Shown: positions 3,798-29,501, counted from the stretch's first letter. The stretch is 29,501 bases of DNA from Candidatus Heimdallarchaeota archaeon (GCA_030614005.1 JAUWKS010000042.1:1-29501), one strand, 5' to 3'. Notes: a model not told the origin generated them from the sequence alone. A program made the numbers and translations.

Positions 3798-3808
3798 GGT
3801 CTATCTTG

Positions 3809-3879
3809 GTTAACGCACTCTTAAAGAGTTGGTGTTAACTTTTGATTCTCTGCGAGTCCGCCCAACTCCCGCGAGGGAG
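3809..3879. other. Two stem-loops at the tnpB 3' end (candidate IS right end / omegaRNA scaffold)
   Basis: GTTAAC..ACTCTT-A-AAGAGT..GTTAAC (3809-3839) and CTCCC-GCGA-GGGAG (3866-3879). Confidence 0.45.
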
Positions 3880-4269: not shown

Positions 4270-4380
4270 CTTACTCATTGCTCTCAGAACGCGTGGTGGA
4301 ACCATTGTTGGTCCTGGAGTAAAGACAAGTTTTTCATTCGAATTATAAAAATCTTCAAAACCACTAGTTAGTTGATTCAT
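4270..4380 (-). pseudogene. 5' fragment (37 codons) of a class V PLP aminotransferase, fused in frame to the tnpB remnant
   Basis: KLVFTPGPTMVPPRVLRAMSK is the typical N-terminus of serine-pyruvate/alanine-glyoxylate aminotransferases. The rest of the enzyme is missing. Confidence 0.75.
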
Positions 4381-11000: not shown

Positions 11001-11275
11001 TGTCTTTCTACGTCCTTTCTCGAAACACGTTTAATTTTTTTCCTGATATAATCTGGCACATTTCTTGTACTACTTGTCAAGGATTTTAAGAAACCTAATG
11101 CACCATTAAACATCTGATCCCAGACTGCAACTAATTCTTTTCCGTCCTCTAAAATTTCTCCACGTTTATCAGTAATGAAATTCTCAACTTCTAAACCATG
11201 AGTAAAAGGCAACTTACGTAGGGTACTTGTAGCAGAATTTGCTGATTTTATGTTTGTGGGACGTTTATTGCTCAT
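8033..11275 (-). CDS. Large multidomain protein: GCS2/YbdK-type carboxylate-amine ligase + Lys/Arg/Ser-rich linker + beta-rich C-terminus
   Basis: HGLEVE, LELVTPP, CGEHHHLG, LIALSNTSPF and TIECRFFD match glutamate-cysteine ligase family 2. About aa 500-730 are low-complexity and basic. About aa 740-1080 show alternating beta-strand patterns. Confidence 0.8.
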   Translation of the reverse strand: MSNKRPTNIKSANSATSTLRKLPFTHGLEVENFITDKRGEILEDGKELVAVWDQMFNGALGFLKSLTSSTRNVPDYIRKKIKRVSRKDVERHGKMIRYVQIEYTVNGKSIAINVFGPDPNISQITWLLELVTPPCEYVEELDWWVNTLYLAASQSITKGYNIQALGFNPYQSEYRAGVTCGEHHHLGGFKNESEKSAAYNMIRAYIPHLIALSNTSPFVNGKPAGRIILKKGNDGRTMVLAPDSVRSFRLKENSGQLGPNMPDYLPHVSSSYTKTQFSRHVRKEIPDDRYVDAYPYTVYGTIECRFFDAQYDQSIRISIILLLQALALKGAKMVRAGTTIPEIKGNTLYEHRKRAVNFGMFAKFQGDPSIEASGGLFAKYYNHNPETGGPPGKIYESLRALLIWLKPELTELRMKESELAPLLIMLWGTARIAPPISAATFMFYLYEQNHNNIANLIKSLGLMNGRPRRVFSEMLGQPDKSVSEFVETKAVKPVRTKDTSQSAIARKLQFDSRARRKKVMAKERQRLKVKQAQAAKTQREKIKREKVLEKKRLERLKLLEKAKKPPPKPIAGRTSRPLAAQSVRRSSSSLKSKRVATIRPAKSTKKLPTRTRSPPAKSSKKSIKKRYSSAKHKKTTRTKAPVKAKTYPKKSSSRSKSLQKGSRGKVQAYASTASSSRYRTQSVVLPKPRISKSAKTNASRTKQKSKTSNRTAGSSTKTVAATPTFQREEFFKESKFVKNVSVHNFPSKVDYSLIVPAIKIKWRRSILQSKISHPVKVEAEFVPLTKGSGARRRSFQESFNLEKASLVDFCYLPIPIQLNNYTGEFQIRFIVRDGKSRKILATAHKLCVKVRVPRDKTHSITNLTTSPNPVGETFVKVKATLSRNNIRGKITLWGLSQRGLIKLYEKKSRFSRKTFTIDLPVVIPLSMCSSKWHILCVFNGRGSSTTTSIKVSPPLSKLINFSLLGNPPLKSRISSNYVTEITPKLQFKAHSDIREIHILQFTKKARAKLIKRYRLKTRVKKGENFVLESFEWKAPSMRKGLFRSYKQRTVSFYCRIVDTVGIINDTHIGVVQTPTITVVK

Positions 11276-14121: not shown

Positions 14122-15291
14122 ATGGCAGGTTATAATTATCGTTGGAGTATTGAGAAACAAAAAGAAAATGCTGAAGATAATCTAATAACGTTTATTAAAA
14201 AACAAATAGCAAATTATAGTCCATTTTATCGTGAATGGTTTAAACAACATGAAATCGATATAAGCAAAATAAAAACAATTGCTGATGTGCAAAAAATCCC
14301 AATAACAACAAAAGCTGAACATTCATCTGATCCGTATTCTTTTATTTTAAAACCATATATGCCAGAATGGTGGGAGTGCAAATTTGAAACAAAACCACTA
14401 TCAAATTATCAATCGTTCATATATTGGTTGAAATCACAAAATAAAAATTACTTTCGAGAGATTTTTAGCAAAGAACCAATGAAAGATGAAGAAAGAACAA
14501 TCACTGAAGCTTCTAATGATTGGTTACCAGTTCATTTCCATACAACAGAAAGCGCAAAGGATCCACGTTTGATAGCGTATACAAAACGTGATTTAAAGAA
14601 GAATATACCCGAAGTTGCTGCTCAAATTTATTCAACAGGATTTAGAGCGTATTGGGAAATATTTAGTTTAATTCCTGCATCACCATCAATAAATTTCTTC
14701 CAAAGTGTTTGGGCGCCCCTATCAGTCGGAGGTGGATCATTCTTTACTTGTGGTGAGAATATTACTTCAATTGACACACAAATTGAAGTAGCAAATAAAA
14801 TTACTTTTGAAGTGTTTTTAGGGAAACCAACATATATGCTCAAGTGGTTAAAAGCGGCTTTGGTTAAACTCAAGAATAACGAAATTTCGCCAATAACTAG
14901 TGTTAAATTATGTATCTTATCAGGTGAACCTTTGAAACCAAAAACTAAAACTCAAATTAAAGGACTATTTTCTCAGCTTGGTTCAGAACCAAGTATCATT
15001 GAAAATTATTCCAATAATCGAACAAAGGTGTCATTTACAGAATGTTCAGAAAACTCAGGCATTCATTTAAATCCAAGATATTTCTACTGGGAAGTATTAG
15101 ATCAAAAGACCTTAGAGCCTGTTGAAGATGGAGAAAGTGGGTATCTCTGTTTTAGTCATATTGATTGGCGAGGTACGGTATTTTTACGATATAACACTGG
15201 TGACCTTATCGGAGGGTTAGAATGGAAAAAATGTGATTCTTGTGGATTAACAATGCCAATAATCAAAGGACCAATTACACGTAAAAAGTAG
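14122..15291 (+). CDS. Phenylacetate-CoA ligase (PaaK/F390 synthetase)-like protein, degenerate and C-terminally short
   Basis: IPITTKAE, GIHL...FYWEVLD, GESGYLCFS, LRYNTGDL and CDSCG. The P-loop SSGTTG is replaced by TTESAK, and the protein ends at the hinge. Confidence 0.75.
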   Translation: MAGYNYRWSIEKQKENAEDNLITFIKKQIANYSPFYREWFKQHEIDISKIKTIADVQKIPITTKAEHSSDPYSFILKPYMPEWWECKFETKPLSNYQSFIYWLKSQNKNYFREIFSKEPMKDEERTITEASNDWLPVHFHTTESAKDPRLIAYTKRDLKKNIPEVAAQIYSTGFRAYWEIFSLIPASPSINFFQSVWAPLSVGGGSFFTCGENITSIDTQIEVANKITFEVFLGKPTYMLKWLKAALVKLKNNEISPITSVKLCILSGEPLKPKTKTQIKGLFSQLGSEPSIIENYSNNRTKVSFTECSENSGIHLNPRYFYWEVLDQKTLEPVEDGESGYLCFSHIDWRGTVFLRYNTGDLIGGLEWKKCDSCGLTMPIIKGPITRKK

Positions 15292-15386
15292 CTATTACTT
15301 TTTACTTTGATTTTTCAAAACAGTTTGCAATTACTCAAAAATAAAGAAAAGTGAACCTCCATTTAGGAGGAAAGTAAATATGTTAA

Positions 15387-15992
15387 TTATTTAACAGGTC
15401 GTTTTTCAACTGTGTCAAGATAATATATAACATTCATCGTTGCAAATGCCATAATGATTATCACAATTGCAATTCCTAACCAAAATGTTGGTGAGATTCT
15501 AACAGTTGATTCAATGAAATCTTTGTTAGCAGGCCAACCCGCGGCGGGTCTTGGAGTACCAGCAGCCCATCTCGCATAGATAAGACTACCAATAAGATAG
15601 AGTATACTGCCAATAAAGACGGATCCACCACCAACTGGACCAGGTCTTTCTCTTGTAAAATAACATGGTTTATTTTGATATGTTAACCAGAATTGATATA
15701 CTGATCCAACAGCTATAATGAATAATCCTAGGCCAATCAAAATAGATGCTGCCATTGGAAAGTCCAATAAATCAACAGCATCGCCAAAAGTACCTTGGGC
15801 AAGATTGTCAGATCGCCATCTGCCACTCCACTTTGTGTAGTAAGTGAAATTTCTATTTCCGGTTCCAAAATGGTTTACATAGGGAACTGCCATTGTAAAG
15901 AGAAGTAAACTAAATGCGCCAATTATTACGCCTATTCCGAGCCATTTTTGAGATGGTCTTGTCATTTCATAACCCAAATGTTTTGCCTCCAA
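15387..15992 (-). CDS. Four-TM membrane protein (claudin/PMP22-like topology, tentative)
   Basis: Four hydrophobic segments with a long first loop containing WSGRW. TTG start at 15992 or ATG at 15965. Confidence 0.75.
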   Translation of the reverse strand: MEAKHLGYEMTRPSQKWLGIGVIIGAFSLLLFTMAVPYVNHFGTGNRNFTYYTKWSGRWRSDNLAQGTFGDAVDLLDFPMAASILIGLGLFIIAVGSVYQFWLTYQNKPCYFTRERPGPVGGGSVFIGSILYLIGSLIYARWAAGTPRPAAGWPANKDFIESTVRISPTFWLGIAIVIIIMAFATMNVIYYLDTVEKRPVK

Positions 15993-16202
15993 TAGTAGTT
16001 AAGGAATGAATTATTCTTTTTAATTCTTTTGATAACTGTTCGTTATTCTTCTTCTTTTCCTCAAGTCTTTCTTTTCGTTCTTTTTCTCTTCTTTTTCCCT
16101 TTTTTTCTTGTTCACTTGCGCACTTTCGTTGTTTTTAAATTTTCATTACGAAAAGCTTTTTTTATGTTTTTATTGCTAGATACTATATATGAGTGATCAA
16201 CT

Positions 16203-16547
16203 TTGACAAAAGATCTATCTATTCACATTAAAATCTGGTTTGAAAAAAAGGGTGAATCTGTTATTGGGCCCGGTAGAATGGCTATCTTGGAGGCAATAGA
16301 TCAAACTGGTTCACTAACTCAAGCAACAGAGATGTGCAATATATCTTTTCGTAAGGCTTGGAAGCTAATCAATGAAATTAATGATAAAATGGAACAACCA
16401 GTAATTTCTACTGCTCGAGGAGGTAAAGGAGGAGGAGGTGGAACAACACTTACAGAATATGGAAAAAAGTTGCTAAAGCAATATAGAAAAATTCAATCTG
16501 TTTTAGAAGGTGTAGTAAGTAATCCTGATATCTGGTCTGAAATATAA
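16203..16547 (+). CDS. ModE-family winged-helix transcriptional regulator (HTH only)
   Basis: IGPGRMAILEAIDQTGSL...ISFRKAWKLI...ARGGKGGGGGTTLTEYG. No TOBE/molybdate-binding domain. Confidence 0.9.
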   Translation: MTKDLSIHIKIWFEKKGESVIGPGRMAILEAIDQTGSLTQATEMCNISFRKAWKLINEINDKMEQPVISTARGGKGGGGGTTLTEYGKKLLKQYRKIQSVLEGVVSNPDIWSEI

Positions 16548-16571
16548 AGAGAAAATAATAAGAAAAAAGTC

Positions 16572-17627
16572 CTATTGATCGTTTTCTTGATCAGGATCTT
16601 TTAAACGCTTTCGTTCAGCATTTAATCTATCAAGGAAACTAAATCTACTAGATTTTTTCTTTGTTGGAGCTGTTTTATCAACTGGTTGTTGTTCATCAAG
16701 GGGCGGTTGGGTTGAAGGTTGTTCCATTATTGGAGGAGTAATTGTGCTTATGGGTTGAGTCGCAGTTTTCTCGGGTTCTGTGGGTGGTTCAATGATAGGT
16801 TCAACAACAGGTTGTTCAGTTAAATCTGTAGTAGTTGGAGCTAATGATATAGGTTCTGTGAAGGAAGGTTTGGCTGACTCTTTTTGCTCTGCTTCATTTA
16901 CCATGGGAGGAGATACTACGCTTGCCTCAGGAGTTATTGGAGCTGTTGGCATTGCCATTATATTATCCACTGTTGGAGCTTCAATAGAAGGCACTCTACC
17001 TATACCTAAAGGCTGGGCAGATATGTGTTGAGAACCGGAAATTGTATGTACTTCAGGTTGCTGAGGATGAGAAGTATCTACCATTTCGGTTGAAGGCATA
17101 TCCAATCCTTTCTTATCAAAAATCATCAACTTGCTTATCGCTTCAAATGTTTCTGTTATACCGATTCCTTTCAAGCTTGTTGTTGGAATATAGAAAGATA
17201 TATTGAGTCTTTTTGCTGTTTCTAAGCCTTCTTCATTCAATACTTCACGGAGCTCTTCTACATCATTCTTTGTACTAACAAGAACCTTTGGAATGTTTAT
17301 GTCCTCTAGTTTGTTAATCCATCGATCAAGAGAATCGAGTGTATCTCTTCGTGTTGTATCGTAACAAAGGATGGCACCATGGGCACCTTTTGTAAAAATA
17401 TTACTAATTTCAGCAAATTGATCTTGTCCACCAATATCACAGATCTGTAATGTTACTTCTTCTCCATCCACAACTAGTTTTTTGCTAAAGAAATCAGCGC
17501 CAATAGATAATTTGTAGCTTCCAAAGAATTCACCGGTGGTTAGGTAATTACAAATAGATGTTTTACCAATTCCGCCGTCACCAAGGACTACTACTTTGAA
17601 GAAGGTTGCCACTAAATATGTCTCCAA
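16572..17627 (-). CDS. Rab-like small GTPase with long Pro/Thr/Gln/Glu-rich C-terminal tail
   Basis: G1 GDGGIGKT, switch I YKLSIGADF, G3 DIGGQ, GAHGAILCYD, G4 STKND. About 180-aa low-complexity tail. Confidence 0.92.
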   Translation of the reverse strand: METYLVATFFKVVVLGDGGIGKTSICNYLTTGEFFGSYKLSIGADFFSKKLVVDGEEVTLQICDIGGQDQFAEISNIFTKGAHGAILCYDTTRRDTLDSLDRWINKLEDINIPKVLVSTKNDVEELREVLNEEGLETAKRLNISFYIPTTSLKGIGITETFEAISKLMIFDKKGLDMPSTEMVDTSHPQQPEVHTISGSQHISAQPLGIGRVPSIEAPTVDNIMAMPTAPITPEASVVSPPMVNEAEQKESAKPSFTEPISLAPTTTDLTEQPVVEPIIEPPTEPEKTATQPISTITPPIMEQPSTQPPLDEQQPVDKTAPTKKKSSRFSFLDRLNAERKRLKDPDQENDQ

Positions 17628-18020
17628 TTATTTTAGATGATTATTTGTTTATTAAATGTATATAAAACATTTGTAAGTAATTTATTACATATTTCCTACT
17701 AAAATTACCTATTTAAGTTTTCGATACGTACTATCTTCAGACAAAAAACAGCTTGAATTTTTTTTGTTTATATTCTTGAAGAACAGCAATTTTTTTGATA
17801 TACAATATCATATGTAATAGACTATTGTAAACAATCAGAGCAAGGTCTCGTTTTTTCTTACTAAAAATTGCGATTTAGAGGAAAAATTCTTATTTGTTTA
17901 CCAAACTTTTAATGAGAGTACCTACGGATAAACATTAATTGTAGATATAATTATTAATAAAAAAGAATAGAAATCAATAAAAACCATCAAATATCAGCAG
18001 ATATGGACAAGTGTTATTCG

Positions 18021-18518
18021 ATGAAAATCTCAAGAATTATAAAAAACAGGAAGGCAATGACACCTTTAATGATTGGATTAATTGTCGCCGCATCAGTAAT
18101 AGCTGTTTTGTTTATTGTATTGGCAGCAGTAGTCCCTTCTATGAGTCATGATTTAAGTATGCAAATTAAGGATCGAAGCATTAAGGGAAATACCACTATT
18201 AATGATCTTTCTTTGAAATTTACAGTAATGTGTGATTACGCTGATGGCGAAGTTTGGAGAGCAGAAATTCACAAGAATGGTGCACTTTACGGTTACTTTA
18301 GTTTAGCTGACGAAACTCCCTTTGAGAAGAATGAACAAAGATTGGTTGTTGTAGCGTACTTTTTAGCTGAAACAGGTATAAATCAAACTGAGGTTGATGG
18401 TGGTCGATTGGTTTTCCAAAATGGACATGATTATGTTCTAAGAGTTTTTTATAGACCTATTGACTCTGAAGTATTAAACACATATACCGAATTAGGTTTT
18501 ACCTATATTCCTGCGTGA
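18021..18518 (+). CDS. Archaeal type IV pilin-like protein (class III signal peptide)
   Basis: Basic KNRKA|MTPLMIGLIVAASVIAVLFIVLAAVVP resembles a PibD/FlaK cleavage site followed by a hydrophobic helix, then a beta-rich domain. ATG 18021 preferred over 18003. Confidence 0.75.
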   Translation: MKISRIIKNRKAMTPLMIGLIVAASVIAVLFIVLAAVVPSMSHDLSMQIKDRSIKGNTTINDLSLKFTVMCDYADGEVWRAEIHKNGALYGYFSLADETPFEKNEQRLVVVAYFLAETGINQTEVDGGRLVFQNGHDYVLRVFYRPIDSEVLNTYTELGFTYIPA

Positions 18519-18523
18519 ATATT

Positions 18524-18549
18524 AAAGGAAAAATGAATTTTCCTTTTTT
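18524..18549 (+). terminator. Terminator-like hairpin plus T tract after the pilin gene
   Basis: AAAGGAAAA-ATGAA-TTTTCCTTT followed by T-rich sequence. Confidence 0.55.
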
Positions 18550-18623
18550 ATTTCTATTTGTTTTTCTTTTTTATTTACTCTTTTTGTTTCGAATATTCCA
18601 AATGCAAACATTTTAAAAGCAAA

Positions 18624-18669
18624 GTATGTATGTAAATGTATGTAGAAATACATACACAGAGATACATAG
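18624..18669 (+). promoter_or_regulatory. TATGTA/TACATA repeat cluster with perfect GAAA-tetraloop hairpin upstream of the Cdc48N-vWA gene
   Basis: TGTATGTA-GAAA-TACATACA (18637-18656) plus extra TATGTA and TACATA copies on either side. Confidence 0.4.
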
Positions 18670-18683
18670 TTTGTGATATAAAA

Positions 18684-20132
18684 ATGGTAGAGAAAATAAT
18701 TGACATTTCAGTGATGAATGTCGGCGAAATTGATGGGCGCGCTTATATGAATAAGCGTGACATGGACAGAATTGGTGTAGATGATTTTGATATCATCCAA
18801 CTAATTAATGAATTTGAAGATAGCTGTGCAGTACAAGTTCTCGAGAATGATGAAGTAGAGGCAGATACAGTTGCAGTAGATAACGGAATTCTTGATTCTG
18901 CAAACATTAGCGACGGCGACAGGGTGAAAATAAGAAAAGCCCAAATTAAAGATGAAGCAATAACTAGAGTGAAGTTTGGCATTGAACCTCTTGAAGGTCA
19001 ACCAGTTGAAGAATGTATAACCTACATTTTGGAGAATTTTGATGAATTAACATCAGTTATAAGAAATAGACCAGTATACCGTAATTTACAAATTGACTGG
19101 CCTGATGCAGGGTGTGGACACGTCAAAATCACCTTTTTAGATGCAGACCCAGATATGGAAGGCGATGAAGTTGGTATTATTGATCCTTCAGGAAAAGAAG
19201 TTGAAGTTCAATTAGTGCCAGCAAGCGAAATGTCCTTCAATGCAGTTCTAATTCTCGATGTATCGGGTTCAATGAGTAAAGTTGATATGATCGTTAAAGG
19301 AACTGGAACAGCAGTTGAAGGGTTAAGAAGAGGTCTTAAAGGAAGCAAAGATTTAGACAAACTCTTAGACGAATTCGAAGAGAAGAAAGTCTCTCGAATT
19401 AAAGGTGCTGCCTTAGCAACTCTAATGTTCCTTTCACAGAAAGTTAGTCGTGGTTGGGGCGAACAATTATCTATTCTCAGTTTTGCTGGGGATGTTGATG
19501 TGTTTGAAATTGAATATGGTTCTGGTGGTCCTACACCAGTCATTGCATGCACTGGTCAAGCAAAATCAGCTGGTCTAGAAATCATTGCCGATTATGTTTC
19601 CAAGAGATGCTCTAAAGGCGGTGGACTTACATTCATGAGTGGTGCAATTCAACAAGCTTATGAAATGACAAAGAAATTCGAGCCAAATTCAATAACAGGT
19701 AAGATGAATCCAGCAATGATTATCCTTCTTACTGATGGTCAACCAAACAAAGGTAATGGTCTTGGTATAAATCCAGTACCCGTTGCTCGCAAATGCGCAC
19801 GAGATTATCCAAATACGATTTTTTATACCATTGGTCTTGGTGAAGCAGATAAAAGACTTCTCAAAAAGTTATCAGAAATTGGCAGAGGAGAATTTTACGA
19901 GGCTAATGACCTTGGAGAATTAACTAAATTCTACGACCTCCTTGCAAGACGATTCATGATCGCCTTAAAAACCGAACCAACTGAACTTGTTGAACAAGTT
20001 CCAGAAGACTTCTTTGATGAAGTCGCTGACGATGAAGAAAGCGATGAAGTCGAATTAGCTCTTGAGGAAGAGTATGGTGGTGCTGGCGAGGACATAGAAG
20101 AATTCGAAGAAGAACTCGAAGAAGACGATTAA
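18684..20132 (+). CDS. Cdc48/NSF N-domain + von Willebrand A domain + acidic tail protein
   Basis: Double-psi barrel pattern (GRAYMN..DMDRIGV..FDII...AN ISDGDRVKIRK), then a Cdc48_2-like subdomain. MIDAS motifs DVSGS, T and LLTDGQPN. D/E-rich C-terminus. ATG 18684 preferred over 18636. Confidence 0.85.
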   Translation: MVEKIIDISVMNVGEIDGRAYMNKRDMDRIGVDDFDIIQLINEFEDSCAVQVLENDEVEADTVAVDNGILDSANISDGDRVKIRKAQIKDEAITRVKFGIEPLEGQPVEECITYILENFDELTSVIRNRPVYRNLQIDWPDAGCGHVKITFLDADPDMEGDEVGIIDPSGKEVEVQLVPASEMSFNAVLILDVSGSMSKVDMIVKGTGTAVEGLRRGLKGSKDLDKLLDEFEEKKVSRIKGAALATLMFLSQKVSRGWGEQLSILSFAGDVDVFEIEYGSGGPTPVIACTGQAKSAGLEIIADYVSKRCSKGGGLTFMSGAIQQAYEMTKKFEPNSITGKMNPAMIILLTDGQPNKGNGLGINPVPVARKCARDYPNTIFYTIGLGEADKRLLKKLSEIGRGEFYEANDLGELTKFYDLLARRFMIALKTEPTELVEQVPEDFFDEVADDEESDEVELALEEEYGGAGEDIEEFEEELEEDD

Positions 20133-20242
20133 GAAATTTTCTTCTTCAATATTTTCCTTTTTTTATTAAAGTACAATTCTTTTTTTGATTTGTTTAAAAT
20201 CTTTTTTTAGCTTAGTATAATGTGAGTTCTTGAAAAATAAAA

Positions 20243-20264
20243 AAATCGATCGATTTAATCGATC
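20243..20264. repeat. Overlapping palindromes (AAATCGATCGATTT; GATCGATT-T-AATCGATC)
   Basis: Read directly. Lies between convergent stops at 20132 and 20281. Confidence 0.5.
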
Positions 20265-20280
20265 AATTAACTGCTGTTTT

Positions 20281-20934
20281 CTAAACAAGCGATAATACTA
20301 AGGATAGATTTACACCTGGAATCAGAGAAACGCCATATATTGCTAATGAAATAATTTGGAATATTCCCCAACCAATACAGAAAAAGGATACAATTATTGC
20401 AACTGGCATCCAATTTAGTATTTTACCTATCATCGCCATTTGTTCTGTCAGAGTTCTAACTAATATAAACACAATAATATCTATTGCTAAGAAAACTGCA
20501 AAATAAATCCATTTACCTTGTCCAAGGTCGCCGAAAACGACTGCAAAAATCGCTGCTCCGAGAAATCCTGCGAGTAAACCCACAAGAGCAGAAATAGGGG
20601 TGTCTTCTAAGGTTCGAAGAGTTAGCAGTGCACCAATAACAACTAAAACTATGATTGTTAGAGGATTAAACCATTGCATCCATGGGTATTCATCGGGAAC
20701 ATTGACTGCTAGAAAACCAGCAAGCATAAGTGTCAATACACCCAAAACAATGCCCACTTTCTCCATGACATCAACCATTGAGAAGAGCATATTTCGTTCG
20801 CTTTCATCATTTTTCTCTATTCGAGCAAATTTCCGGATTACTCCTGAAGTAACTACAACAGCATCCAGGATAAGGACAATTGGTGAAAGAATAAACATTG
20901 CAAATTCAAATGCGTGCTCCATGATAAAATTCAC
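20281..20934 (-). CDS. Hypothetical multi-pass membrane protein (about 6 TM)
   Basis: 217 aa with repeated hydrophobic helices. Starts 54 nt after the NuoH-like gene on the same strand. Confidence 0.8.
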   Translation of the reverse strand: MNFIMEHAFEFAMFILSPIVLILDAVVVTSGVIRKFARIEKNDESERNMLFSMVDVMEKVGIVLGVLTLMLAGFLAVNVPDEYPWMQWFNPLTIIVLVVIGALLTLRTLEDTPISALVGLLAGFLGAAIFAVVFGDLGQGKWIYFAVFLAIDIIVFILVRTLTEQMAMIGKILNWMPVAIIVSFFCIGWGIFQIISLAIYGVSLIPGVNLSLVLSLV

Positions 20935-20988
20935 CTAATATATGAATGAATAGTGCAAGCTATCTTATTAAGATATTCTATTAAGCAT

Positions 20989-22029
20989 TTAACTTATACC
21001 GAATACTGCAGCAACTCCCCCAACAACTAAAACAGTAACCAAAGCACCAGGTATTAAAATTTTGAAACTAATATTTATTGCTTGATTTGACTGTAATCGA
21101 GGAATAAGGGCTTTTATTATTGTAATAACTAACATAACCAAACTTAGTTTGAAAAGAAAATTCAACAGATGAGCTAATAATTCATAACCAGCCAATATCG
21201 GAATCGGAAGGTATGATCCTCCTAAAAAAGCAGAGACAATAACTCCTGCGAGCGCTAGTTCAAAAATGCGCATAGAGGTATTCCATACGTGAAACTTCCA
21301 ATTTTTTGTTGTAGGAAGCCTAATAGATAAATCAGGTGTTGAATTCAATCTATCGAAATGTGGTTGATCGAATTTGAGAGATAACGCTAATATAGAAATC
21401 AATACACCCCAAGGTATAAGAAGTAATAGTCCATAGGCTCGATTTTCATATGCAATTAGTCGAATGTCCTCAGCAAGGACACTAATACTCATAGATCTCC
21501 TGACAAGAGATGGACCAACAAAAGCTAAAAATAACGGAATATCAAATAGCATAAATGTTAATGCTATTTTTAACGCTTCATAAGTAGAATGCTTCTCACC
21601 AATCCATAAAATAAAGAAGATGAGAATGCCAATAAACATGCTAATTGTAAGTAAAAGTAACAAGTCACCTTCAAAAGAAATAATGCCAACTATACCTGTT
21701 GTTCTTCCGGAACTGTTCCTATAAATCCCTACAAGGGAAGAAAATTCACCTTCAACACAAATAGGTAGTACTAATGCGCTCATTAAACTAAGAGTTAAGA
21801 GAAGTAGTAGTAATATACCTTGAATAACACTTCTTATGTTTAGTTGCTCTTTCTCTCCTTTGAAACAAAGCTTGAAATGTTCTACAATTGGGATAAACAT
21901 CGGAGAACCTTTAGGTTTAAAACTAAAACGCGAATATAATCTGCTAGTAATTTGCTCGAAAAGAATGGCTAATCCAAGAATAAACAAAAAGCCTGGAAAA
22001 ATGAATATTTCTACCCATGGAATTGCCAT
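20989..22029 (-). CDS. Divergent NuoH/HyfC/EchB-like membrane subunit
   Basis: FPGF...EQITSRLYSRF...PIVEHFKLCFKGE parallels NuoH ERK..ARLQ.R...QPIAD..KL..KE. Also FLGG and PRLQ near the C-terminus. Confidence 0.8.
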   Translation of the reverse strand: MAIPWVEIFIFPGFLFILGLAILFEQITSRLYSRFSFKPKGSPMFIPIVEHFKLCFKGEKEQLNIRSVIQGILLLLLLTLSLMSALVLPICVEGEFSSLVGIYRNSSGRTTGIVGIISFEGDLLLLLTISMFIGILIFFILWIGEKHSTYEALKIALTFMLFDIPLFLAFVGPSLVRRSMSISVLAEDIRLIAYENRAYGLLLLIPWGVLISILALSLKFDQPHFDRLNSTPDLSIRLPTTKNWKFHVWNTSMRIFELALAGVIVSAFLGGSYLPIPILAGYELLAHLLNFLFKLSLVMLVITIIKALIPRLQSNQAINISFKILIPGALVTVLVVGGVAAVFGIS

Positions 22030-22124
22030 ATTTTTAACTCCTATTTATTTCACATTGGATGAATGATTTAATGATATATTTGAATTACTTTAAACCTTTT
22101 GTAATATTTTATGCTGAACTTTTT

Positions 22125-23270
22125 TTATCCACTTATTCCCCAACCTTCTCCGACAAATAAAAGAATAGTAGAAATGCTTTCAATCGCGTTTCCAGTAATT
22201 CGGGAAAGCAATCCCTGAGTATTAACTTTCATTGGGCAAGTTATTTTAATTAATCGAGGAGTACCTTTCTCTGTGCCTTTCCTGCTATGAACAAAACTAA
22301 ATAGTTCACCAATGGGGGTTTCTACTCTAACAATAGTATTGCTTGCAGCTAATTCAAACGTAGTAGTGGAATTATGAATAGGTCCCTCAGGCAAAGTTTG
22401 CAAAAGCTCTCTAACGATTTTTATTGATATAATGATTTCATCAAATAGAACTAAAAATTCTCCAAAAAGATCACAGAAATCAGAAACAGGAACATCAAAT
22501 GAAATGTCTTTATAGGCGCAATATGGATCTGATTGTCGTACATCAGCTGTTATTCCAGAAGTCCTTGCTAAAGGACCTACTAATGAAAGTTTTTTCGCTG
22601 TCTCTCTTGAGATAAATCCAACATCCTTCAATAACCCCTTCACTAATGGATTTCTTTGATTTCTAGTTTTGATTTTTTGTATTTTCGTTTCCATTTTTGA
22701 AAGCGTTTGATAAAGTGAAACTACTTCTTCTTCTACAATGTCAGTAGCTACACCCCCGAATGTAATAAATGGATTAACAGAAGCAGGTTGAGTGATATTT
22801 TCAATATGAGCTAAAATAGCTCTTCGCAACAACAGAACTCTTTGATGAAGTATTGGATAGGAGATTCCTTTTGCAATTGTACCAAGTCTAAGAAGATGGC
22901 ATTGAATTCTTTCTAATTCCAAAATAACAGAACGAATATAATTTGCTCTATCGGGAACAACAACGGGTTTTTTTGCTAGTTTCTCAAGAGCTAAAGAAAT
23001 TACTGTTTGATAATGAAATGGATGAACAATTGCAGAAGAGGAAGCTAATTGAAGTAATTTTTCCCAGGAGTTTTTTTGAAATAATGGTTCGTAATTATTA
23101 CAAGAACATAATTTTCCTTCCAGTTTTGTGCCTTCTACTTTATTTGGAGATAATTTCATTTGAATGGCAACTGATTCATTAGTAAACATATTTCGTAATA
23201 GAATGCGTTTATCATAAGTTGAAGAAATGTCCCCGTTCTCGTTAGATTTAATCACAATTATCTTCTCCAT
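22125..23270 (-). CDS. Divergent NuoD / group 4 [NiFe]-hydrogenase large-subunit homologue lacking Ni-binding cysteines
   Basis: VPDRANYIRSVILELERIQCHL, GPLARTSG..DVR...PY, VETPIGEL. No CxxC at L1 or L2. Confidence 0.8.
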   Translation of the reverse strand: MEKIIVIKSNENGDISSTYDKRILLRNMFTNESVAIQMKLSPNKVEGTKLEGKLCSCNNYEPLFQKNSWEKLLQLASSSAIVHPFHYQTVISLALEKLAKKPVVVPDRANYIRSVILELERIQCHLLRLGTIAKGISYPILHQRVLLLRRAILAHIENITQPASVNPFITFGGVATDIVEEEVVSLYQTLSKMETKIQKIKTRNQRNPLVKGLLKDVGFISRETAKKLSLVGPLARTSGITADVRQSDPYCAYKDISFDVPVSDFCDLFGEFLVLFDEIIISIKIVRELLQTLPEGPIHNSTTTFELAASNTIVRVETPIGELFSFVHSRKGTEKGTPRLIKITCPMKVNTQGLLSRITGNAIESISTILLFVGEGWGISG

Positions 23271-23491
23271 ATTCTATAGATTATATCTATTTATTGTGAA
23301 GATACACTTTTGAATATTTGTGTTTGCAAATGAAAAGAATATTAAATTCTGTTAGAATTAGATGTCAAAATCATAGAAATCAAACAATGTTTTTATGAGT
23401 TCATTTCGTTAACCAAAGTTTGTTAATAGATAAATCCAGAAAGTGTTCTTTTCTCTTAATAATTAGTAAAAAAATCGGAGTGACTTTTTGT

Positions 23492-23608
23492 AGGGTTGTG
23501 GCTGTAGCTGTTTATTAAAGGTAAAAAGAACGGGAAAAAATAACCGATTTTATTTATATAAATGTTTCAAGAGGGGGATTAGTGAGGGTTGTTACTGTTG
23601 CTATTAAA
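23492..23608. repeat. Two imperfect direct repeats at the island boundary
   Basis: AGGGTTGTGGCTGTAGCTGTTTATTAAA (23492-23519) and AGGGTTGTTACTGTTGCTATTAAA (23585-23608). Confidence 0.35.
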
Positions 23609-23798
23609 TATAGACAAATAAAACAAAAGCTTTTTACTGATTTTAAAAACTAGAGTTCGAAGAATCTCTTCATCTTAATAGGATTAACTCTATCTTCATC
23701 ATCAACTAGTAAAAACACACCGACATTTCTTTTGATATATTACACACTCCAATCACTCTCATTTTCATGTAATCTCTAAATCAATTCCAAGAGTTGTT

Positions 23799-24383
23799 TT
23801 TTGCGACAAACAATTGAATTTCTTACAACACGTAAAAACAATCCTTAAAATACATGGAAAAGCTGCAATTGTTATTCCTGATAATGTTCTTTTTGAAGGT
23901 GGCGCAGGTGAAACTATTAGAAAAAAACTTCTTACAACATGTGATGTTCATACATTGCTTAGATTACCAACCGGACTTTTCTATGCTCAAGGTGTAAAGG
24001 CTAATGTTCTTTTCTTTGATAAGAAACCTGCAAGCGATAAACCATGGACTGATAAACTCTGGATTTATGATTTACGAACCAATAAACATTTTACACTCAA
24101 GGAAAGTCCTCTGCGTTTTACAGATTTAGAAGAATTTATCGAGTGCTATAACTCTGAAAATAGACACGAGAGGAAAGAATCCGAGAGATTCAAAGTATTT
24201 ACTTATGATGAATTAATGCAGCGAAACAAAGTTAACTTTGATATTTTCTGGTTGAGAGATGAGAGTATGGAAGACCTTGAAAATCTTCCTGATCCCGAAG
24301 TTATTGCTCAAGAAATTGTTGAAAGTCTTGAATTTGCTTTGGAGCAATTCAAAGGTATTTATGAAGAATTAGCAGAGGAATGA
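23799..24383 (+). pseudogene. hsdM: C-terminal fragment of type I restriction-modification methyltransferase subunit
   Basis: KQLNFLQH...AAIVIPDNVLFEGGAGETIRKKLL...LRLPTGLFYAQGVKANVLFF...W.YDLRTNKHFTLK...NFDIFWLRDES. SAM-binding motif I and NPPF are missing, and there is no upstream coding sequence. Confidence 0.88.
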
Positions 24384-27300
24384 ATTCGCTTTATCATATT
24401 GATAAAGCTTTATTTCATCCAAATCTTTTGATGGATCAATAATCATAATACATTTTTGATGATACGTGTTCCCCTTCTTCAACCAATGTCCTAATCCATA
24501 TACTCTAAAACGTTCATTATAGAATCGATGATGTAAATGACCAATAACTAAATGTGTTACCTCTGTGATTTTTGGCAACCAACTTCTACCAGTTTTAATG
24601 AGCTCTTTTTTCGCTTGAATGGCAGCTACTTCAATACCAATATTCTTTGCTAATTTAGCATCTATACCAATTTTATTTCCATGGACAAAAAGCACTTGTT
24701 CTGTTTTAGTTTCAATATAGACATAGTCTTGATGGAGAAAGCCAGAGAACTGTTCGAGATTGCCATCATGAATAGAAGAACTTCGAACAAACACTAATTT
24801 TGACCAATATCCCTCTTGTATTGCTTTTGTTTTTAATTGGTTGAATGCTTCCTTACTTTCCTCAGATACTTTATCCAGCAAGTCACCATTTAGAATAATA
24901 ATAACCGCTTGTTTGCTGAATTCACTAATAGCTTCAAAAAATTCTTCCTGAAAGCATAACTCATGTGTAAGATGAATATCGGAAAAAGCAATAATCCTAT
25001 TCTCTTGTGAATCGATTTGCAAATTGGGTTCAATTGCTTCTGTATTATCAAGTGACTCTAAATTTGAAATATTGACCATATCTTTCACCAATTGTTTCAG
25101 ATATTCTTTGGAACCATCGGGCAAAAGACCCAGAATCTCTCCATAACAGTATTCACAACCTCGCTCACAAGAGCATTGCTCTAATCTCTGCAATGCTTGC
25201 TGGGCTACTTCTTGTAAATGTAAAAACAAATATTCAGCGTTTCCATTTGGTTCTCCTTTATCATAAATTGCCAATTGATTTGCATTATACACGAGTTCAA
25301 ATTCAGAAGCAGGTATAGAAAGAACCATCTCTACCTCAATGAGCAGAATTTCACCAAATAATTTTAGCATTTTCTTTGTAGTAAGGTTTTTTGGTTTTAA
25401 TAATTCAGTTTCCATGCTTATGACGATACCTTCTGATTTTTCGGCTATTGCTAACTCATTCGACTCTTGCTGTGTCAATTCCTGATAAAAATAGTTGCTG
25501 TTCTCATCCCTGCTTTTATCATTAACTAGCATTGAATTTGGATTGGCATTTGCAATTATCTTTGGCTTTTGGTTGGCAGTGATAAGTCCAAAATTGATGT
25601 TCACTAATCTTGTTCCTTGAATTTTCTTTGAAAATACACCAACGGAAATTGTTGGGTCATATAATTGATTCATTGGAAGTAAAGAGAAAGTATCATCCGA
25701 ATCACCGGTAAAGTATTTTTCTACTAAGATAGTTTTTTGCCATTTATCGAAATCAGTAACTAGGTACTTCTGTCTATTCCTAACAATAAGATTGTCAGGC
25801 AAACCTTTCTTGAGCACATCTTTTGGGGAAATTTTACCTAATGAAGTTGTTTGATCAGTTAACCGAATGGAATCAATACCTTTCTTCAATTGGATAGACC
25901 AATTAGCACTAATAGCTCTAATAGATGAAGGAACGAGAACATCATTGTTTTTTAGTTGTCGAAGCCTATTTTCTCCTTGACTGGTAAACAATATTTTTCC
26001 AGATACTTTTTTTAGCACGTTGAAACAAATGAGTTTAGTAAGTTGCTGTCGAGCTATTTCATAGACTTTTCTTCCTTCTTTCAAAAAGAAGGACATTATT
26101 TCTTGATAATCATTGATACCATATCGTAAATGGAGCACAAGCAATCCGGCTAAAATCTTGGGGTTTTGTCTTGGATAGAGTATTGGATTGCAAGCATTTG
26201 TTTCAAGTATAGTACGTAATATTTCTAGATGATGCCAATAGAAATTGTCTCGAGAGTTAGCAAGATCGAAAATACAGACATTCACCCGTCTTTCACTTGG
26301 GTTAGAACGGTTACGAGCGAATCTTTGAACGATACCATCCTTTTGGGTTATTGGTATCCCGATATTTACTACTGTTTGGACATTTGGAATATTCACTCCT
26401 AGCTCTAGAACAGAGGAGGAAATAAGTATCTTAATTCTGTTCCTTGTTCCCTTCTTTATCTCATCAAGTATCTTTTTTCGTTGAGCATAAGGCAAGTCTG
26501 CATGAATAATTGCTACAGTTATTTCTTCAAAGAATGGGTGCTTTTTCCTAAGCTTTGCGCACAGTCGTTCCGCCAATAGTTCAATCTCTTCTTTAGAATC
26601 CATAAATACTAAGCAGAATTTTCCCGGCATAGAGTCTAGTTCATGCCAAAGATCGGCAAGAAATGGTACAGTATGTTCTTTTGTTATTCCAAGGAATTCA
26701 TGTTCTCCACGTACAGGAGGGCAAGTAATAATTCCCGCACCTTGTAAGAAATCATCCCGAAAGTCAACAACATCATCAATCGTTGCAGAGGATAGGACAA
26801 CTTGACACTTGTGATTATTGTTCTTGTGTATCTGTATAAATCCCTTAATAATTCCTGCTGCAAAACCTTCAAAGGCATGTATCTCATCAAAAACCATATA
26901 CGGGCTAGAACTTATTTTATCGAGTAATGGATTCGTTTTTCCATGCTTTATCTGGTACCATACTTTATCGAATGTTGCTAAAAGGATGTTTGGTGGATGT
27001 TGCTCTGTTTCGTAGAGCTCTTTTTTCTGTGCATGTTTACTAACTGTTGAACCTGTAGCTCTACTAATATCGCCACTATACATCTTAACGGTTAATCGTT
27101 TACCACTTTGCTCTTCTAATTTTACAACTAACTCTTTCATTCTATCAAATTGGTCCAATAGAAGCTGCTTTGAAGGGTAGAATACTACAAAAAAATCAAT
27201 CTCACCTGTTAATATTTTAATTATTCCAGGAACACTAAACGAGAGTGATTTTCCTGAATACGTTCCTCCATTAATGATTAATCCATTATTAGTGGTTGTT

Positions 27301-27551
27301 GAGTTCAGCAAATGCTGTATTGCTTCTGCTTGATGCTCATAGGGGTGAGCACTTTGCACTATTGACTCAAGAACTAGTCCAAGTCCTTCTGCTTCTTTAG
27401 GTAAAAGATCAGACCAAACTAAATCGTTCCTAACTCTTGGTTGGGATGGGGGTAATGTAAGTATTGGAACCCACTCTCTTGGAGTAGTTACTTCTAAAGG
27501 AAACTTTTGAGTTGCTTTGGTTCGTCTATTAGTATTATTTATTTTAGTCAT
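24369..27551 (-). CDS. YprA/MrfA/Hrq1-type SF2 (DExH) helicase with Zn-binding DUF1998-like motif fused to a calcineurin-like metallophosphoesterase
   Basis: Helicase: YEHQ, GTYSGKS, YPSKQLLLDQ, YSGD, DEIH, SAT, SVLELGVNI, QRFAR and CSCERGCEYC. Phosphoesterase: FSDIH, NGDLLD, IHD, FVHG and IGHLH. ATG 27551 has AGGTGA 5 nt upstream (ORF track gives GTG 27560). Confidence 0.88.
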   Translation of the reverse strand: MTKINNTNRRTKATQKFPLEVTTPREWVPILTLPPSQPRVRNDLVWSDLLPKEAEGLGLVLESIVQSAHPYEHQAEAIQHLLNSTTTNNGLIINGGTYSGKSLSFSVPGIIKILTGEIDFFVVFYPSKQLLLDQFDRMKELVVKLEEQSGKRLTVKMYSGDISRATGSTVSKHAQKKELYETEQHPPNILLATFDKVWYQIKHGKTNPLLDKISSSPYMVFDEIHAFEGFAAGIIKGFIQIHKNNNHKCQVVLSSATIDDVVDFRDDFLQGAGIITCPPVRGEHEFLGITKEHTVPFLADLWHELDSMPGKFCLVFMDSKEEIELLAERLCAKLRKKHPFFEEITVAIIHADLPYAQRKKILDEIKKGTRNRIKILISSSVLELGVNIPNVQTVVNIGIPITQKDGIVQRFARNRSNPSERRVNVCIFDLANSRDNFYWHHLEILRTILETNACNPILYPRQNPKILAGLLVLHLRYGINDYQEIMSFFLKEGRKVYEIARQQLTKLICFNVLKKVSGKILFTSQGENRLRQLKNNDVLVPSSIRAISANWSIQLKKGIDSIRLTDQTTSLGKISPKDVLKKGLPDNLIVRNRQKYLVTDFDKWQKTILVEKYFTGDSDDTFSLLPMNQLYDPTISVGVFSKKIQGTRLVNINFGLITANQKPKIIANANPNSMLVNDKSRDENSNYFYQELTQQESNELAIAEKSEGIVISMETELLKPKNLTTKKMLKLFGEILLIEVEMVLSIPASEFELVYNANQLAIYDKGEPNGNAEYLFLHLQEVAQQALQRLEQCSCERGCEYCYGEILGLLPDGSKEYLKQLVKDMVNISNLESLDNTEAIEPNLQIDSQENRIIAFSDIHLTHELCFQEEFFEAISEFSKQAVIIILNGDLLDKVSEESKEAFNQLKTKAIQEGYWSKLVFVRSSSIHDGNLEQFSGFLHQDYVYIETKTEQVLFVHGNKIGIDAKLAKNIGIEVAAIQAKKELIKTGRSWLPKITEVTHLVIGHLHHRFYNERFRVYGLGHWLKKGNTYHQKCIMIIDPSKDLDEIKLYQYDKANSFLC

Positions 27552-27564
27552 GTAATTCACCTGT

Positions 27565-29469
27565 TTAGCTGAAATATTGTTTGTAAATTTCCAAGTGCTC
27601 TGTAATGCAGTTCAAAATTCGCAGCAAATTTCTCGGAGGAGACCAATCTGACCAAAAACTCTTTAGCTTTATCTGCTGCGAGTGATCAATCGCTTCCAAA
27701 GTAGCAATTAGATTGATTGTTCTTGTATTGATATGGTCAAAGTTACTTACTAACTCTGGGAGATTTTCATCTTCGGTGGGAATTTGTCCTATAGAGAATA
27801 GTAATTCCTGTACCATTCGATTATTGGTGTTCAATTGATAATAGCATTGCCTGTTAATTTTTTCACGAATTAGCAACCCTTGAGTAACCATTTGTGAGAG
27901 AATTCTTTGGGTTTGGTTTTGTGTCAATTGTAATACTTCTCGAAAATGGTTTGTTGAATATTTTGCGAAATATAGTTCCATCTGAAGAGCATAGGAGAGT
28001 AAAACTAATACAATAATCAAACTTCTATCCTGTTCCTTCTTTAGGAATTTAGTTAGCTGTAACTTCTCCCGACCCCGTTTATTATTCCAAGTACGCCATT
28101 TCTGCATTGCAATTTCTCGAAACACACTGCGAGTTTTTCTAGCAGCGAGTACTCTTTCTTCACTTCCAGCATACAAATCAGCATATTCTGAAGCAAACTT
28201 GTTCACTAAGGAAAGATCGTGTTCGATTCCAGAAGGACATATTACAAAAGGGTTAAAATTAGCTTCTTGAAAACATTGTTTGATTTTGCTCGTACTGAGC
28301 TGTTTTTCCAGACGGAATTCTTCAAAACAATTAATGAATGCTTTTCTAAAAGTTACTAAATAGTGCTCGAATGCATGGAGAAAGGGAATAGTTTTCCCGT
28401 AATAATACACTGGGAGTGAAACTGCTGCTGTGATTAGTTGTCTGATCTTCTTTTGTGCGTTGCTTTTTATTCGATAGACCTCTTGTCCTTTTTGTCCTAG
28501 CACGAGTGAACAATCATCAATGGTGAGCACTCCTGCTTGCATTGCTTCAAACATAGTTATCAAAGCAAGCACTCGCACAGGTTCTATAAGATCAAAATAT
28601 AACCCAAGCTTGTCTATATCCGATTTTGTTCGTCTTTTATGGAATAATCCGGCGCCCATAAGAGCAGGTTCAAGACCAATCTTTCTAAAAATTTCATCAA
28701 TTTCTGAGCGGAAGCCCCTAATAAACTGATTAAGGATCACATCTAACGGTGCATATGCAAAACTCGTTTTTCGACTAAAGGAAAGGAACATATCCATTAC
28801 AAACCGTGAAGTAACTCTTCCACGCGTCCAGAGCCCAACTTTTGCCCCTTCTTCTTTGAGCAATTCAAAGAAAAATCTGTTACTTTGTGCTTCCAGTAAC
28901 ATGCCATAATAACGAGACCGCACTCCTCCTGCAACCTTAATTTGCAAATCAATCATCTCAAATAACTGACGATTAATATGTTCATTCGGGTATTCTTTTC
29001 TCAGGTTTGTTTTTCTGAGGTATAACCCACCGCCAATATTTGATAGATGTCTAGCTTGTAAAAAGGACTGGTTGAATGTTTTCTTCTCACCTATAAAGGA
29101 AACTACTGTTTGCAAGAATTGGTATTGTTCTTTAGTGAACGGTTTCTCTTGAGATGATTCACTCGATAAGCTCTTTTTTGATTTCTTCTCTTTTGTTTTT
29201 GCTCTACTAATAGTGTAGTGATATTTTTCTGGTTCAAATTGTGCTAATGTTTCTAAGAATTTCTCTATTCTTTTGTAGCGTTTCCCTGAAAAGAAAATAT
29301 ATTGTACTTTTTCAAGTGGTATTTCATTTTTACAGATAGTAAGAACGAATGTTTTGTCACTCTTCCTTTCTAACTTTATATTTTCATTGTCATAAATTAC
29401 AAAAGCATACGAAGGATCTTTTTCCAACAATACTTGTGGGATTGACCCTGCTATTTGATAATAGAGCAT
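27565..29469 (-). CDS. cas1: Solo Cas1-family integrase-like protein with long C-terminal extension and winged HTH (may extend past the window edge)
   Basis: EIPLEKVQYIFFSG (Cas1 N-domain); GMLLEAQSNRFFF (E193); APLDVILN; GLEP...GLFH (H277); LYFDLIEPVR (D293/E296); FREVLQLTQNQTQRILSQMVTQGLL..E...YYQL (wHTH). The frame stays open to base 29501. Confidence 0.78.
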   Translation of the reverse strand: MLYYQIAGSIPQVLLEKDPSYAFVIYDNENIKLERKSDKTFVLTICKNEIPLEKVQYIFFSGKRYKRIEKFLETLAQFEPEKYHYTISRAKTKEKKSKKSLSSESSQEKPFTKEQYQFLQTVVSFIGEKKTFNQSFLQARHLSNIGGGLYLRKTNLRKEYPNEHINRQLFEMIDLQIKVAGGVRSRYYGMLLEAQSNRFFFELLKEEGAKVGLWTRGRVTSRFVMDMFLSFSRKTSFAYAPLDVILNQFIRGFRSEIDEIFRKIGLEPALMGAGLFHKRRTKSDIDKLGLYFDLIEPVRVLALITMFEAMQAGVLTIDDCSLVLGQKGQEVYRIKSNAQKKIRQLITAAVSLPVYYYGKTIPFLHAFEHYLVTFRKAFINCFEEFRLEKQLSTSKIKQCFQEANFNPFVICPSGIEHDLSLVNKFASEYADLYAGSEERVLAARKTRSVFREIAMQKWRTWNNKRGREKLQLTKFLKKEQDRSLIIVLVLLSYALQMELYFAKYSTNHFREVLQLTQNQTQRILSQMVTQGLLIREKINRQCYYQLNTNNRMVQELLFSIGQIPTEDENLPELVSNFDHINTRTINLIATLEAIDHSQQIKLKSFWSDWSPPRNLLRILNCITEHLEIYKQYFS

Positions 29470-29501
29470 CCTAAGAAAATGACGATGTTCTGTTTGAATA
29501 G

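Follow-up and report, generated by a model that had tools for sequence, protein, structure and literature searches.

A Cas1-family fusion protein and a helicase-phosphoesterase within a probable TnpB-carrying, transposon-like insertion of a Heimdall-group Asgard archaeon

Cas1 gave CRISPR (clustered regularly interspaced short palindromic repeats) its memory and is thought to be derived from a transposon, and Cas12 descends from TnpB. A mobile element that combines TnpB with a Cas1-type integrase but lacks a conventional transposase bears on the assembly of adaptive immunity from such elements. Such a pairing is raised by a contig of Candidatus Heimdallarchaeota archaeon (GCA_030614005.1 JAUWKS010000042.1:1-29501; 29 501 nucleotides, hereafter the window), in which a gene for a diverged Cas1-type protein (gene B) is followed directly by one for a DExH helicase-metallophosphoesterase (gene C). 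An earlier reading, made from the sequence alone, took the two genes for a candidate undescribed integration or defence module. To what do these genes belong, and what might they do? Both very probably lie inside a transposon-like insertion, together with a LAGLIDADG gene (gene A) and tnpB. The insertion is assigned transposon ends because a sister species holds the empty site and because the termini are common to short tnpB-only copies and to a related long copy in another genome.

The features of gene B in the window are as follows.

27565-29501, minus strand: gene B, the C-terminal 644 codons of a protein of ~1379 residues, running open off the contig end (open reading frame, ORF, called at 27565-29499)
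about 29412-29200, minus strand: Cas1 β-domain, from fold matches of the AlphaFold (AF2) model
about 29148-28204, minus strand: Cas1 catalytic helical domain, from fold matches of the same model
28893-28891, 28641-28639, 28593-28591 and 28584-28582, minus strand: catalytic residues E203, H287, D303 and E306, respectively, in translation P0001
about 28143-27568, minus strand: winged helix-turn-helix (wHTH) domain, residues 453-644, Z about 7

Gene B was taken to be truncated in the window because it is unclosed at the right end (the window is the entire contig C29, 1-29501), because contig C48 overlaps that end by 94 identical nucleotides and because its homologues are 1355-1392 residues long. 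The same 94 nucleotides also occur in contig C8, but C8 reads through them contiguously. Contig C48 encodes the first 765 codons of gene B, i.e. 735 further N-terminal residues (L008 2100-4394), so that the window holds the C-terminal 46% of the full protein. The sequence-only reading had given an ORF of 634 residues or longer; the second alternative stood, while a 634-residue protein did not.

An AF2 model of the window part of gene B was calculated using 20 homologues (pLDDT, the predicted local distance difference test score, 81). Its match to Archaeoglobus fulgidus Cas1 (4n06_B) spans both the β-domain and the helical catalytic domain (VIA-align Z 19.8, root-mean-square deviation 5.6 for 291 aligned residues, model residues 67-422). 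The Methanosarcina mazei casposase (6opm_A) was matched with Z 18.3, and Foldseek returned Cas1 and casposase structures with an E value of 1.7e-8. The Cas1 fold, the N-terminal β-domain and the C-terminal wHTH that had been proposed from the sequence were thus all recovered, as was the catalytic set; the residues originally numbered E193, H277 and D293/E296 correspond to E203, H287, D303 and E306 of P0001. These four residues are invariant in all 16 full-length family members. On adding three relatives at 20-22% identity, Glu, His and Asp are still invariant and the position of E306 stays acidic. In sequence searches, no match to PF01867 (Cas_Cas1) was found on gene B at E values up to 1 or in a six-frame search of the genome, Pfam, NCBIfam and PADLOC gave nothing Cas1-like on this ORF, and the whole-length family profile found no Cas1 among PDB sequences. 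With a trimmed family profile the top PDB match was the casposase 6opm_A, at an E value of 0.1 only, in an alignment that pairs the His and the DLxEP motif with casposase GFLH..YDLQEPFR. As judged from the modelled two-domain fold and the catalytic set, gene B is a member of the Cas1 superfamily.

For the N-terminal half of gene B the predicted fold is that of a helicase of the Hel308/Hjm/Ski2 type, with Z 18-19 against Hjm and Hel308. Walker A and DExH motifs are not conserved in it: within the first 450 residues such a string is missing from 12 of the 16 members, and in the other four it occurs as stray matches at unrelated positions. Four invariant CxxC pairs (zinc ribbons) follow downstream of the helicase-like domain. 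No specific fold was assigned to residues 450-735, a region with helical, winged-helix and zinc-ribbon segments, for which the helicase domain dominated the match list. The order in gene B is an inactivated Hel308-like helicase, four CxxC zinc ribbons, the Cas1 β-domain, a catalytically intact-looking Cas1 domain and the wHTH. The proposed identity as a solo Cas1-wHTH protein is ruled out by this fusion, the helicase and zinc-ribbon portions of which lie on contig C48.

The DNA upstream of gene B had been suggested as a place where an ordinary cas operon and array might lie. Neither was found; a LAGLIDADG-HTH gene and tnpB stand there instead. Gene A, on contig C48, encodes 541 residues with a LAGLIDADG_3 domain and an XRE-type HTH; in both of its LAGLIDADG motifs the acidic residues are retained (GDG and DADG). 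Contig C48 also carries the first 40 nucleotides of tnpB, divergent from gene A, and contig C72 (2-1363) contains tnpB codons 55-499, leaving about 123 nucleotides of tnpB unassembled between the two contigs. Paralogous tnpB genes match OrfB_IS605 and the zinc-ribbon TNB family in Pfam, with PDB TnpB matches down to 1.7e-16. In the element-linked tnpB family Gly replaces the catalytic Glu of RuvC-II (IIIGDLN versus IAIEDL), as seen in five copies from three genomes (C8, i.e. L009 6403-7902, C72, C86, L010 and L012); the tnpB types of contigs C9 and C63 retain this Glu. Judged by the substitution, the nuclease of the Gly-for-Glu TnpB may be inactive or rewired.

Gene C and its junction to gene B have the following features.

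24369-27560, minus strand: gene C, 1063 residues from GTG 27560 or 1060 residues from ATG 27551
about 27338-26769, minus strand: DEAD domain (DExH superfamily 2, SF2, helicase), Pfam 2.9e-14
about 26648-26313, minus strand: Helicase_C domain, Pfam 1.6e-15
about 25289-25146, minus strand: MZB/DUF1998 zinc domain, Pfam MZB 1.4e-6, above the cut-off
about 24998-24372, minus strand: C-terminal metallophosphoesterase domain, Pfam Metallophos 0.014, sub-threshold
27551-27567, minus strand: B-C junction, comprising the TAA of gene B, a 13-nucleotide spacer with GGTGA and the ATG of gene C, as read in the sequence

The description of the neighbour as a DExH helicase-metallophosphoesterase of ~1060 residues was borne out. 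GKS and DEIH motifs are readable in the translation, the phosphoesterase motifs DxH, GDxxD, GN and GHxH are invariant in six orthologues, and 82 of 100 matches in an Atlas feature search were to Metallophos (calcineurin-like phosphoesterases). The 13 nucleotides between the stop codon of gene B and the ATG at 27551, given exactly in the earlier reading, are ACAGGTGAATTAC, with GGTGA inside. B and C overlap or abut in the paralogous and orthologous loci, and by its sequence the junction is one at which gene C is translationally coupled to gene B. A complex prediction for the Cas1 domain (30-440) and the C-terminal 584 residues of gene C, folded without alignments, scored 0.00.

Genes A, B and C might instead be passenger cargo on a TnpB transposon, forming a CRISPR-independent defence or DNA-repair module (a helicase-nuclease effector with a Cas1-derived nuclease or DNA sensor), with some other enzyme, unrecognized or unassembled, moving the element. 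This is considered unlikely, though it deserves more weight than the other alternatives below. The top PADLOC matches of gene C are indeed defence helicases (SngC 4e-18, DruE 1.8e-14, BrxH and Cas3), and MZB helicases are known from DISARM and MrfA-type systems. However, these matches are confined to the generic helicase core (28-358 of 720 positions for SngC and 91-287 of 2023 for DruE); for DISARM, Druantia and Shango, neither a full-length helicase match nor the partner genes were found at the gene C locus, and genes A and B matched no system component in PADLOC beyond HTH models.

The limits of the insertion were obtained by comparison with a sister species, G234. The left end (LE) and the DNA between it and gene C contain the following features.

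23395-23416, minus strand: LE terminus, TTGGTTAACGAAATGA + ACTCAT on the minus strand, with the junction between 23394 and 23395
23596-23766, minus strand: non-coding remnant resembling the 3' end of a helicase-phosphoesterase paralogue (contig C110), blastn 83%/78% to C110 34773-34938/51163-51337
23814-24383, plus strand: 3' fragment (189 codons) of a type I hsdM gene, N6_Mtase 2.9e-28, profile positions 164-294 of 311

Contig C3 of G234 is collinear with window positions 14554-23309 and continues, only 87 nucleotides further on, as contig C72 of the source genome from position 1377. Its empty site reads ...CAATGTTTTTA ATGCAAAATGAATAG... without a break (contiguously, ...TTTTTAATGCAAAATGAATAG) and has a single AT. 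At the left junction the window reads ...CAATGTTTTT and then LE, ATGAGTTCATTTCGTTAACCAA...; at the right junction, contig C72 reads the right end (RE), ...CCGTTAACCAAGATAGACC, and then ATGCAAAATGAATAG... The window copy is therefore made up of 23395-29501, contig C48, about 123 nucleotides and C72 2-1375, about 11.9 kb in all. Contigs of three public DNA runs from two studies bridge the LE junction and a fourth run extends 12 nucleotides across it; in the contigs of these four runs, which drop rare variants, no loose end, alternative joint or empty allele was seen at 23394/23395.

The RE terminus recurs at 16 places and the LE terminus at nine, with different flanks in which AT is the sole common part. 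Short tnpB-only copies are numerous, their LE sequences being 92-97% alike. In L010 (GCA_050009915.1), RE and LE bracket exactly tnpB-A-B-C over 11 095 bp with no other gene, and the LE terminus sits 148 nucleotides past gene C. RE adjoins the 3' end of tnpB in C8, C72 and L010. LE is not RE in inverted form; both contain CGTTAACCAA, in the same orientation. Neither terminal inverted repeats (TIRs) nor a 14-15-bp target duplication were found at the window/C72, short-copy or L010 junctions. A local alignment search for the short-element LE (its last ~90 nucleotides) 3' of gene C gave scores within the shuffled range; among them was a weak match in the window at 23392-23416, which the empty site identified as the genuine LE terminus. 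No inverted repeats were found around the C63 or L012 copies, no LE terminus was found in C18, and no motif is conserved 3' of gene C across subfamilies. The window copy has two additional pieces between gene C and LE, namely the phosphoesterase-gene remnant and the hsdM tail; the latter, which lies inside the element and runs convergently to gene C, matches the 3' end of the intact C18 hsdM gene at 92% identity. Separately, the interior of RE contains a short hairpin between two GTTAAC hexamers (e.g. C72 1320-1375 and window 3798-3850), the stem of which covaries among copies (ACGCTT/AAGCGT, ACTCTT/AAGAGT and CTCT/AGAG); such a hairpin might serve a transposase as its site, or form the 3' stem of an omega RNA.

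How widely the module occurs was examined in the source genome and in other Asgard genomes. The A-B-C module is present at least four times in the source genome, with amino-acid identities to the window copy as listed.

C29 + C48: window copy (reference)
C8 + C18: B 93%, C 91%
C63: B 86%, C 87%
C9: B 41%, C 59%

In every complete copy tnpB adjoins gene A. The order tnpB-A-B-C is found in three other loci of the source genome and also in L010 and in GCA_021399375.1 (L012), and in GCA_016927615.1 (L011) B-C stand at a contig end, so that the adjacency of B and C extends to other genomes; the sources of the homologues are annotated as Candidatus Heimdallarchaeota. In a sample of 300 Asgard genomes, matches to the giant B family were confined to the genus of the window, where five of the nine other species have it. 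More distant large aCas1 proteins, the Asgard Cas1 homologues that were reportedly catalogued by Makarova and co-workers in 2020, occur elsewhere in the sampled genomes. In the source genome itself, ten or more ORFs are aCas1-like. Three Cas1-like genes that have diverged from one another (those of B-C, C110 and C88) each stand directly upstream of a helicase-phosphoesterase gene, A-like genes head several different aCas1 modules and tnpB-A pairs without B-C are present in C86 and C15. The C110 locus (34842-39843) has a strongly diverged Cas1-like gene of 502 residues, with an A-like LAGLIDADG gene 3 kb further upstream, and C88 (3-3596) has a fragment of another at a contig start; the helicase-phosphoesterase genes of these two loci are paralogues at 26-35% identity. 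In C8, gene B is split by one in-frame stop codon (3595-3597) into ORFs of 238 and 1132 codons and is either a pseudogene or needs read-through.

The C9 copy (L007, 2902-14080) has the same plan with a different end family, consisting of perfect, subterminal 18-nucleotide inverted repeats beyond which 14 and 24 further nucleotides are conserved. About ten copies of ~300 nucleotides with C9 ends, resembling miniature inverted-repeat transposable elements, occur at contig ends (e.g. C5 17-303 and C124 15-309). No target duplication was seen with C9-type ends.

The surroundings of these copies bear in two ways on whether A-B-C could be cargo. Next to gene C, contigs C18 and C63 each have a complete type I restriction-modification (R-M) operon, the window holds the hsdM remnant, and SMC-like, JAB/ThiF and methylase genes neighbour the element in L010 and L012, all of which speak for cargo. 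On the other side, all of the long forms seen carry the same A-B-C set (three genomes, two end families) and variable cargo was not seen, the L010 ends enclose nothing but tnpB-A-B-C, and no alternative transposase was found in 11 genomes of the genus. The operons in question (hsdM, hsdS and hsdR; C18 3085-8769 and C63 44918-50822) follow gene C directly, convergent with it in C18 and co-directional in C63; the window has the 189-codon hsdM tail only.

Searches were made for other genes that could move the element or tie it to CRISPR. In 11 genomes of the genus nothing matched Y1 TnpA (PF01797) over the Pfam cut-off. The source genome, which is 90% complete and in which repeats assemble badly, yielded no serine recombinase or resolvase (PF00239), no canonical Cas1 (PF01867) and no Cas2 (PF09827), and a crude k-mer repeat finder found no CRISPR array in it. 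The window itself has no cas2, array or PolB, as had been noted before, and looking beyond it for PolB, cas2, arrays, TIRs and a target-site duplication returned none of them. In L010 the sole genes between RE and LE are tnpB, A, B and C, and PolB is not among them. It is accordingly very improbable that the locus represents a decayed module of CRISPR adaptation, or else a casposon, with its partners (Cas2, array or PolB) elsewhere. All that speaks for such an origin is the Cas1 fold, to which Cas1 and casposase structures match with similar scores; against it stand the missing Cas2, canonical Cas1 and array, the fully accounted-for gene content between the element ends and the lack of TIRs and of a 14-15-bp duplication. 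Compared with casposons (M. mazei, 6opm), the window element has in common a Cas1-family integrase outside CRISPR, a self-contained mobile element and a C-terminal HTH. It differs in lacking all three of PolB, TIRs and the duplication, in the embedding of its Cas1 domain in a 1379-residue fusion and in its partners, which are TnpB, a LAGLIDADG protein and a helicase-nuclease. Of the earlier proposal of a Cas1 integrase coupled to a helicase-nuclease outside CRISPR, the operon pairing was upheld; of its two branches, the casposon-like mobile element gained support from the empty site and the ends, though the element is no casposon, and a stand-alone defence system is less supported.

What, then, would the module do? 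We infer, as the simplest reading, that the Cas1 domain acts as the transposase, because no Y1 or serine enzyme was found, short copies are numerous and the long forms all carry A-B-C. The LAGLIDADG nuclease and the helicase-phosphoesterase are likely to be part of the same machinery. In the proposed mechanism the element would run in the order LE (with decayed hsdM and nuclease remnants next to it), gene C, gene B, gene A, divergent tnpB and RE, and A-B-C would transpose it. Its ends, with their subterminal CGTTAACCAA, would be recognized by the wHTH, the zinc ribbons and the HTH; they would be freed and trimmed to 3'-OH groups by the helicase-phosphoesterase together with the LAGLIDADG nuclease; and strand transfer, carried out by the Cas1 domain, would go into targets that contain AT, so that each junction is left with AT only. 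Short tnpB-only copies would be mobilized in trans, and TnpB with its RNA might provide retention or homing, as in IS200/605 elements. That B and C are the distal half of one copy of a Heimdall-group Asgard transposon, ~11-12 kb long and working in this way, is, as a whole, given an even chance. The more specific claim, that the Cas1-family enzyme, the LAGLIDADG nuclease and the helicase-phosphoesterase constitute the transposase of a polymerase-free TnpB transposon that moves tnpB-only derivatives in trans with AT-only junctions, is put forward tentatively, as quite possible.

Several observations weigh against this mechanism. The AT-only junctions are unlike the staggered-cut duplication of Cas1 and casposase integration, and the asymmetric ends with a subterminal hairpin are of a style handled by HUH Y1 enzymes. 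RE copies and B do not strictly co-occur within the genus: genome G276 has four RE-like termini and no match to B, and G288 has B and no match to RE. In two close copies the element borders on a complete type I R-M operon, which gives the setting the look of a defence island. The genome completeness of 90% and the poor assembly of repeats limit the absence of other transposases, and the link between C48 and C72 was drawn from synteny and not from assembled sequence. To our knowledge there is no biochemistry for any aCas1. The junctions without a Cas1-style duplication and the RE termini of G276 without a detectable B would also suit A-B-C as cargo moved by another enzyme.

Alternatively, gene A could drive mobility as a homing endonuclease, making a double-strand break at empty sites that is followed by copying through recombination, with B and C serving in end processing or repair and the Cas1 site not integrating. 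This is regarded as improbable. The retention of both LAGLIDADG motifs with acidic residues in gene A would fit, as would the position of A-like genes at the head of several aCas1 modules, the tnpB-A pairs in C86 and C15 and the lack of a long duplication at the junctions, which homing predicts. Yet homing would lead one to expect a single cognate site, whereas the 16 RE and nine LE copies have unrelated flanks that share only AT; gene A is absent from the short copies; and the Cas1 catalytic residues are strictly kept among proteins of 20-90% identity, which argues for a site in use.

The element was also compared with known systems. TnpB-linked aCas1 loci of Asgard archaea have been proposed to be transposons with the Cas1 homologue as the predicted transposase (Altae-Tran et al., 2023, PMC10691335, citing Makarova, 2020). 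These loci (Cas1H-Asgard-1/-2; PMC10691335) resemble the window element in the Asgard host, a diverged Cas1 missed by Pfam, an adjoining tnpB and a repeat-bounded locus. They differ in that a hypervariable stretch 3' of tnpB followed by GTTCACTCA was reported for them (PMC10691335), a motif which is not at the RE of the window family, and in that the window-family tnpB has Gly for the RuvC-II Glu. A genome-wide search for GTTCACT[CG][AC] gave scattered chance matches, none at RE among those listed, and the pattern is absent from the 16 RE sequences; the hypervariable stretch with GTTCACTCA may be specific to other aCas1-TnpB groups. Beyond the aCas1-TnpB papers, nothing was found in the literature on a tnpB-A-B-C module, in a comparison made without Makarova (2020). 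By its sequence features the element agrees with the aCas1-TnpB transposons that have been described computationally in Asgard archaea, a known, experimentally uncharacterized kind. The label 'undescribed' for the module was thus withdrawn, and the caveat attached to it, a possible overlap with an Asgard-restricted Cas1 clade, applies.

With IS200/IS605 elements the window element shares the tnpB 3' end at RE, asymmetric LE and RE, a covarying RE hairpin, the lack of a target duplication and abundant tnpB-only copies. It differs in having no Y1 TnpA (11 genomes) or serine recombinase (source genome), the long form having the 9 kb A-B-C segment instead. The pairing of an integrase with an SF2 helicase-nuclease recalls Cas1-Cas2/3 of type I-F, and gene C matches Cas3 cores weakly. 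However, B and C have no Cas2 domain or HD nuclease, and the nuclease is a C-terminal calcineurin-like phosphoesterase. Gene C shares the DEAD, Helicase_C and four-Cys MZB domains with MrfA/YprA-type DUF1998 helicases.

This class of element has so far been known only from gene-neighbourhood surveys. To this the window copy adds exactly defined termini and an equally exact empty site, a clean reference copy of 11.1 kb (L010), non-autonomous derivatives and a full domain architecture, and with the ends, empty site, reference copy and derivatives in hand direct transposition assays can be designed. If the Cas1 domain is the transposase, it would be a new DNA-insertion enzyme and a possible tool, its integration chemistry and partner set would be unlike those of casposons and CRISPR adaptation, and the element would be a living case of Cas1 and an RNA-guided nuclease cooperating in one mobile element.

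Further traces of the same family and some unrelated genes were observed elsewhere in the window. Positions 1-159 contain the terminal ~150 nucleotides of the LE of another tnpB element of this family, matching C97 154-303; its terminus reads ...TTAGTTAACGAAATAGAATCAT and is followed by unique sequence. This LE repeat is present at 18 or more contig ends, which explains the fragmented assembly. A decayed copy of the other end lies at 3798-4380 (minus strand) with the C-terminal 180 codons of tnpB (Cas12f1-like_TNB 3.5e-14); a perfect RE terminus (3798-3814) stands beside the decayed tnpB and adjoins a triosephosphate isomerase gene. An ORF of 1080 residues at 8033-11275 (minus strand) matches only glutamate-cysteine ligase family 2 in Pfam, weakly and over a short stretch. 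Two genes of the flanking chromosome are eukaryote-like in a manner typical of Asgard archaea: a ubiquitin-conjugating E2 at 4669-5142 (minus strand; UQ_con 9.7e-33) and a 351-residue Ras/Roc-family GTPase at 16572-17627 (minus strand).

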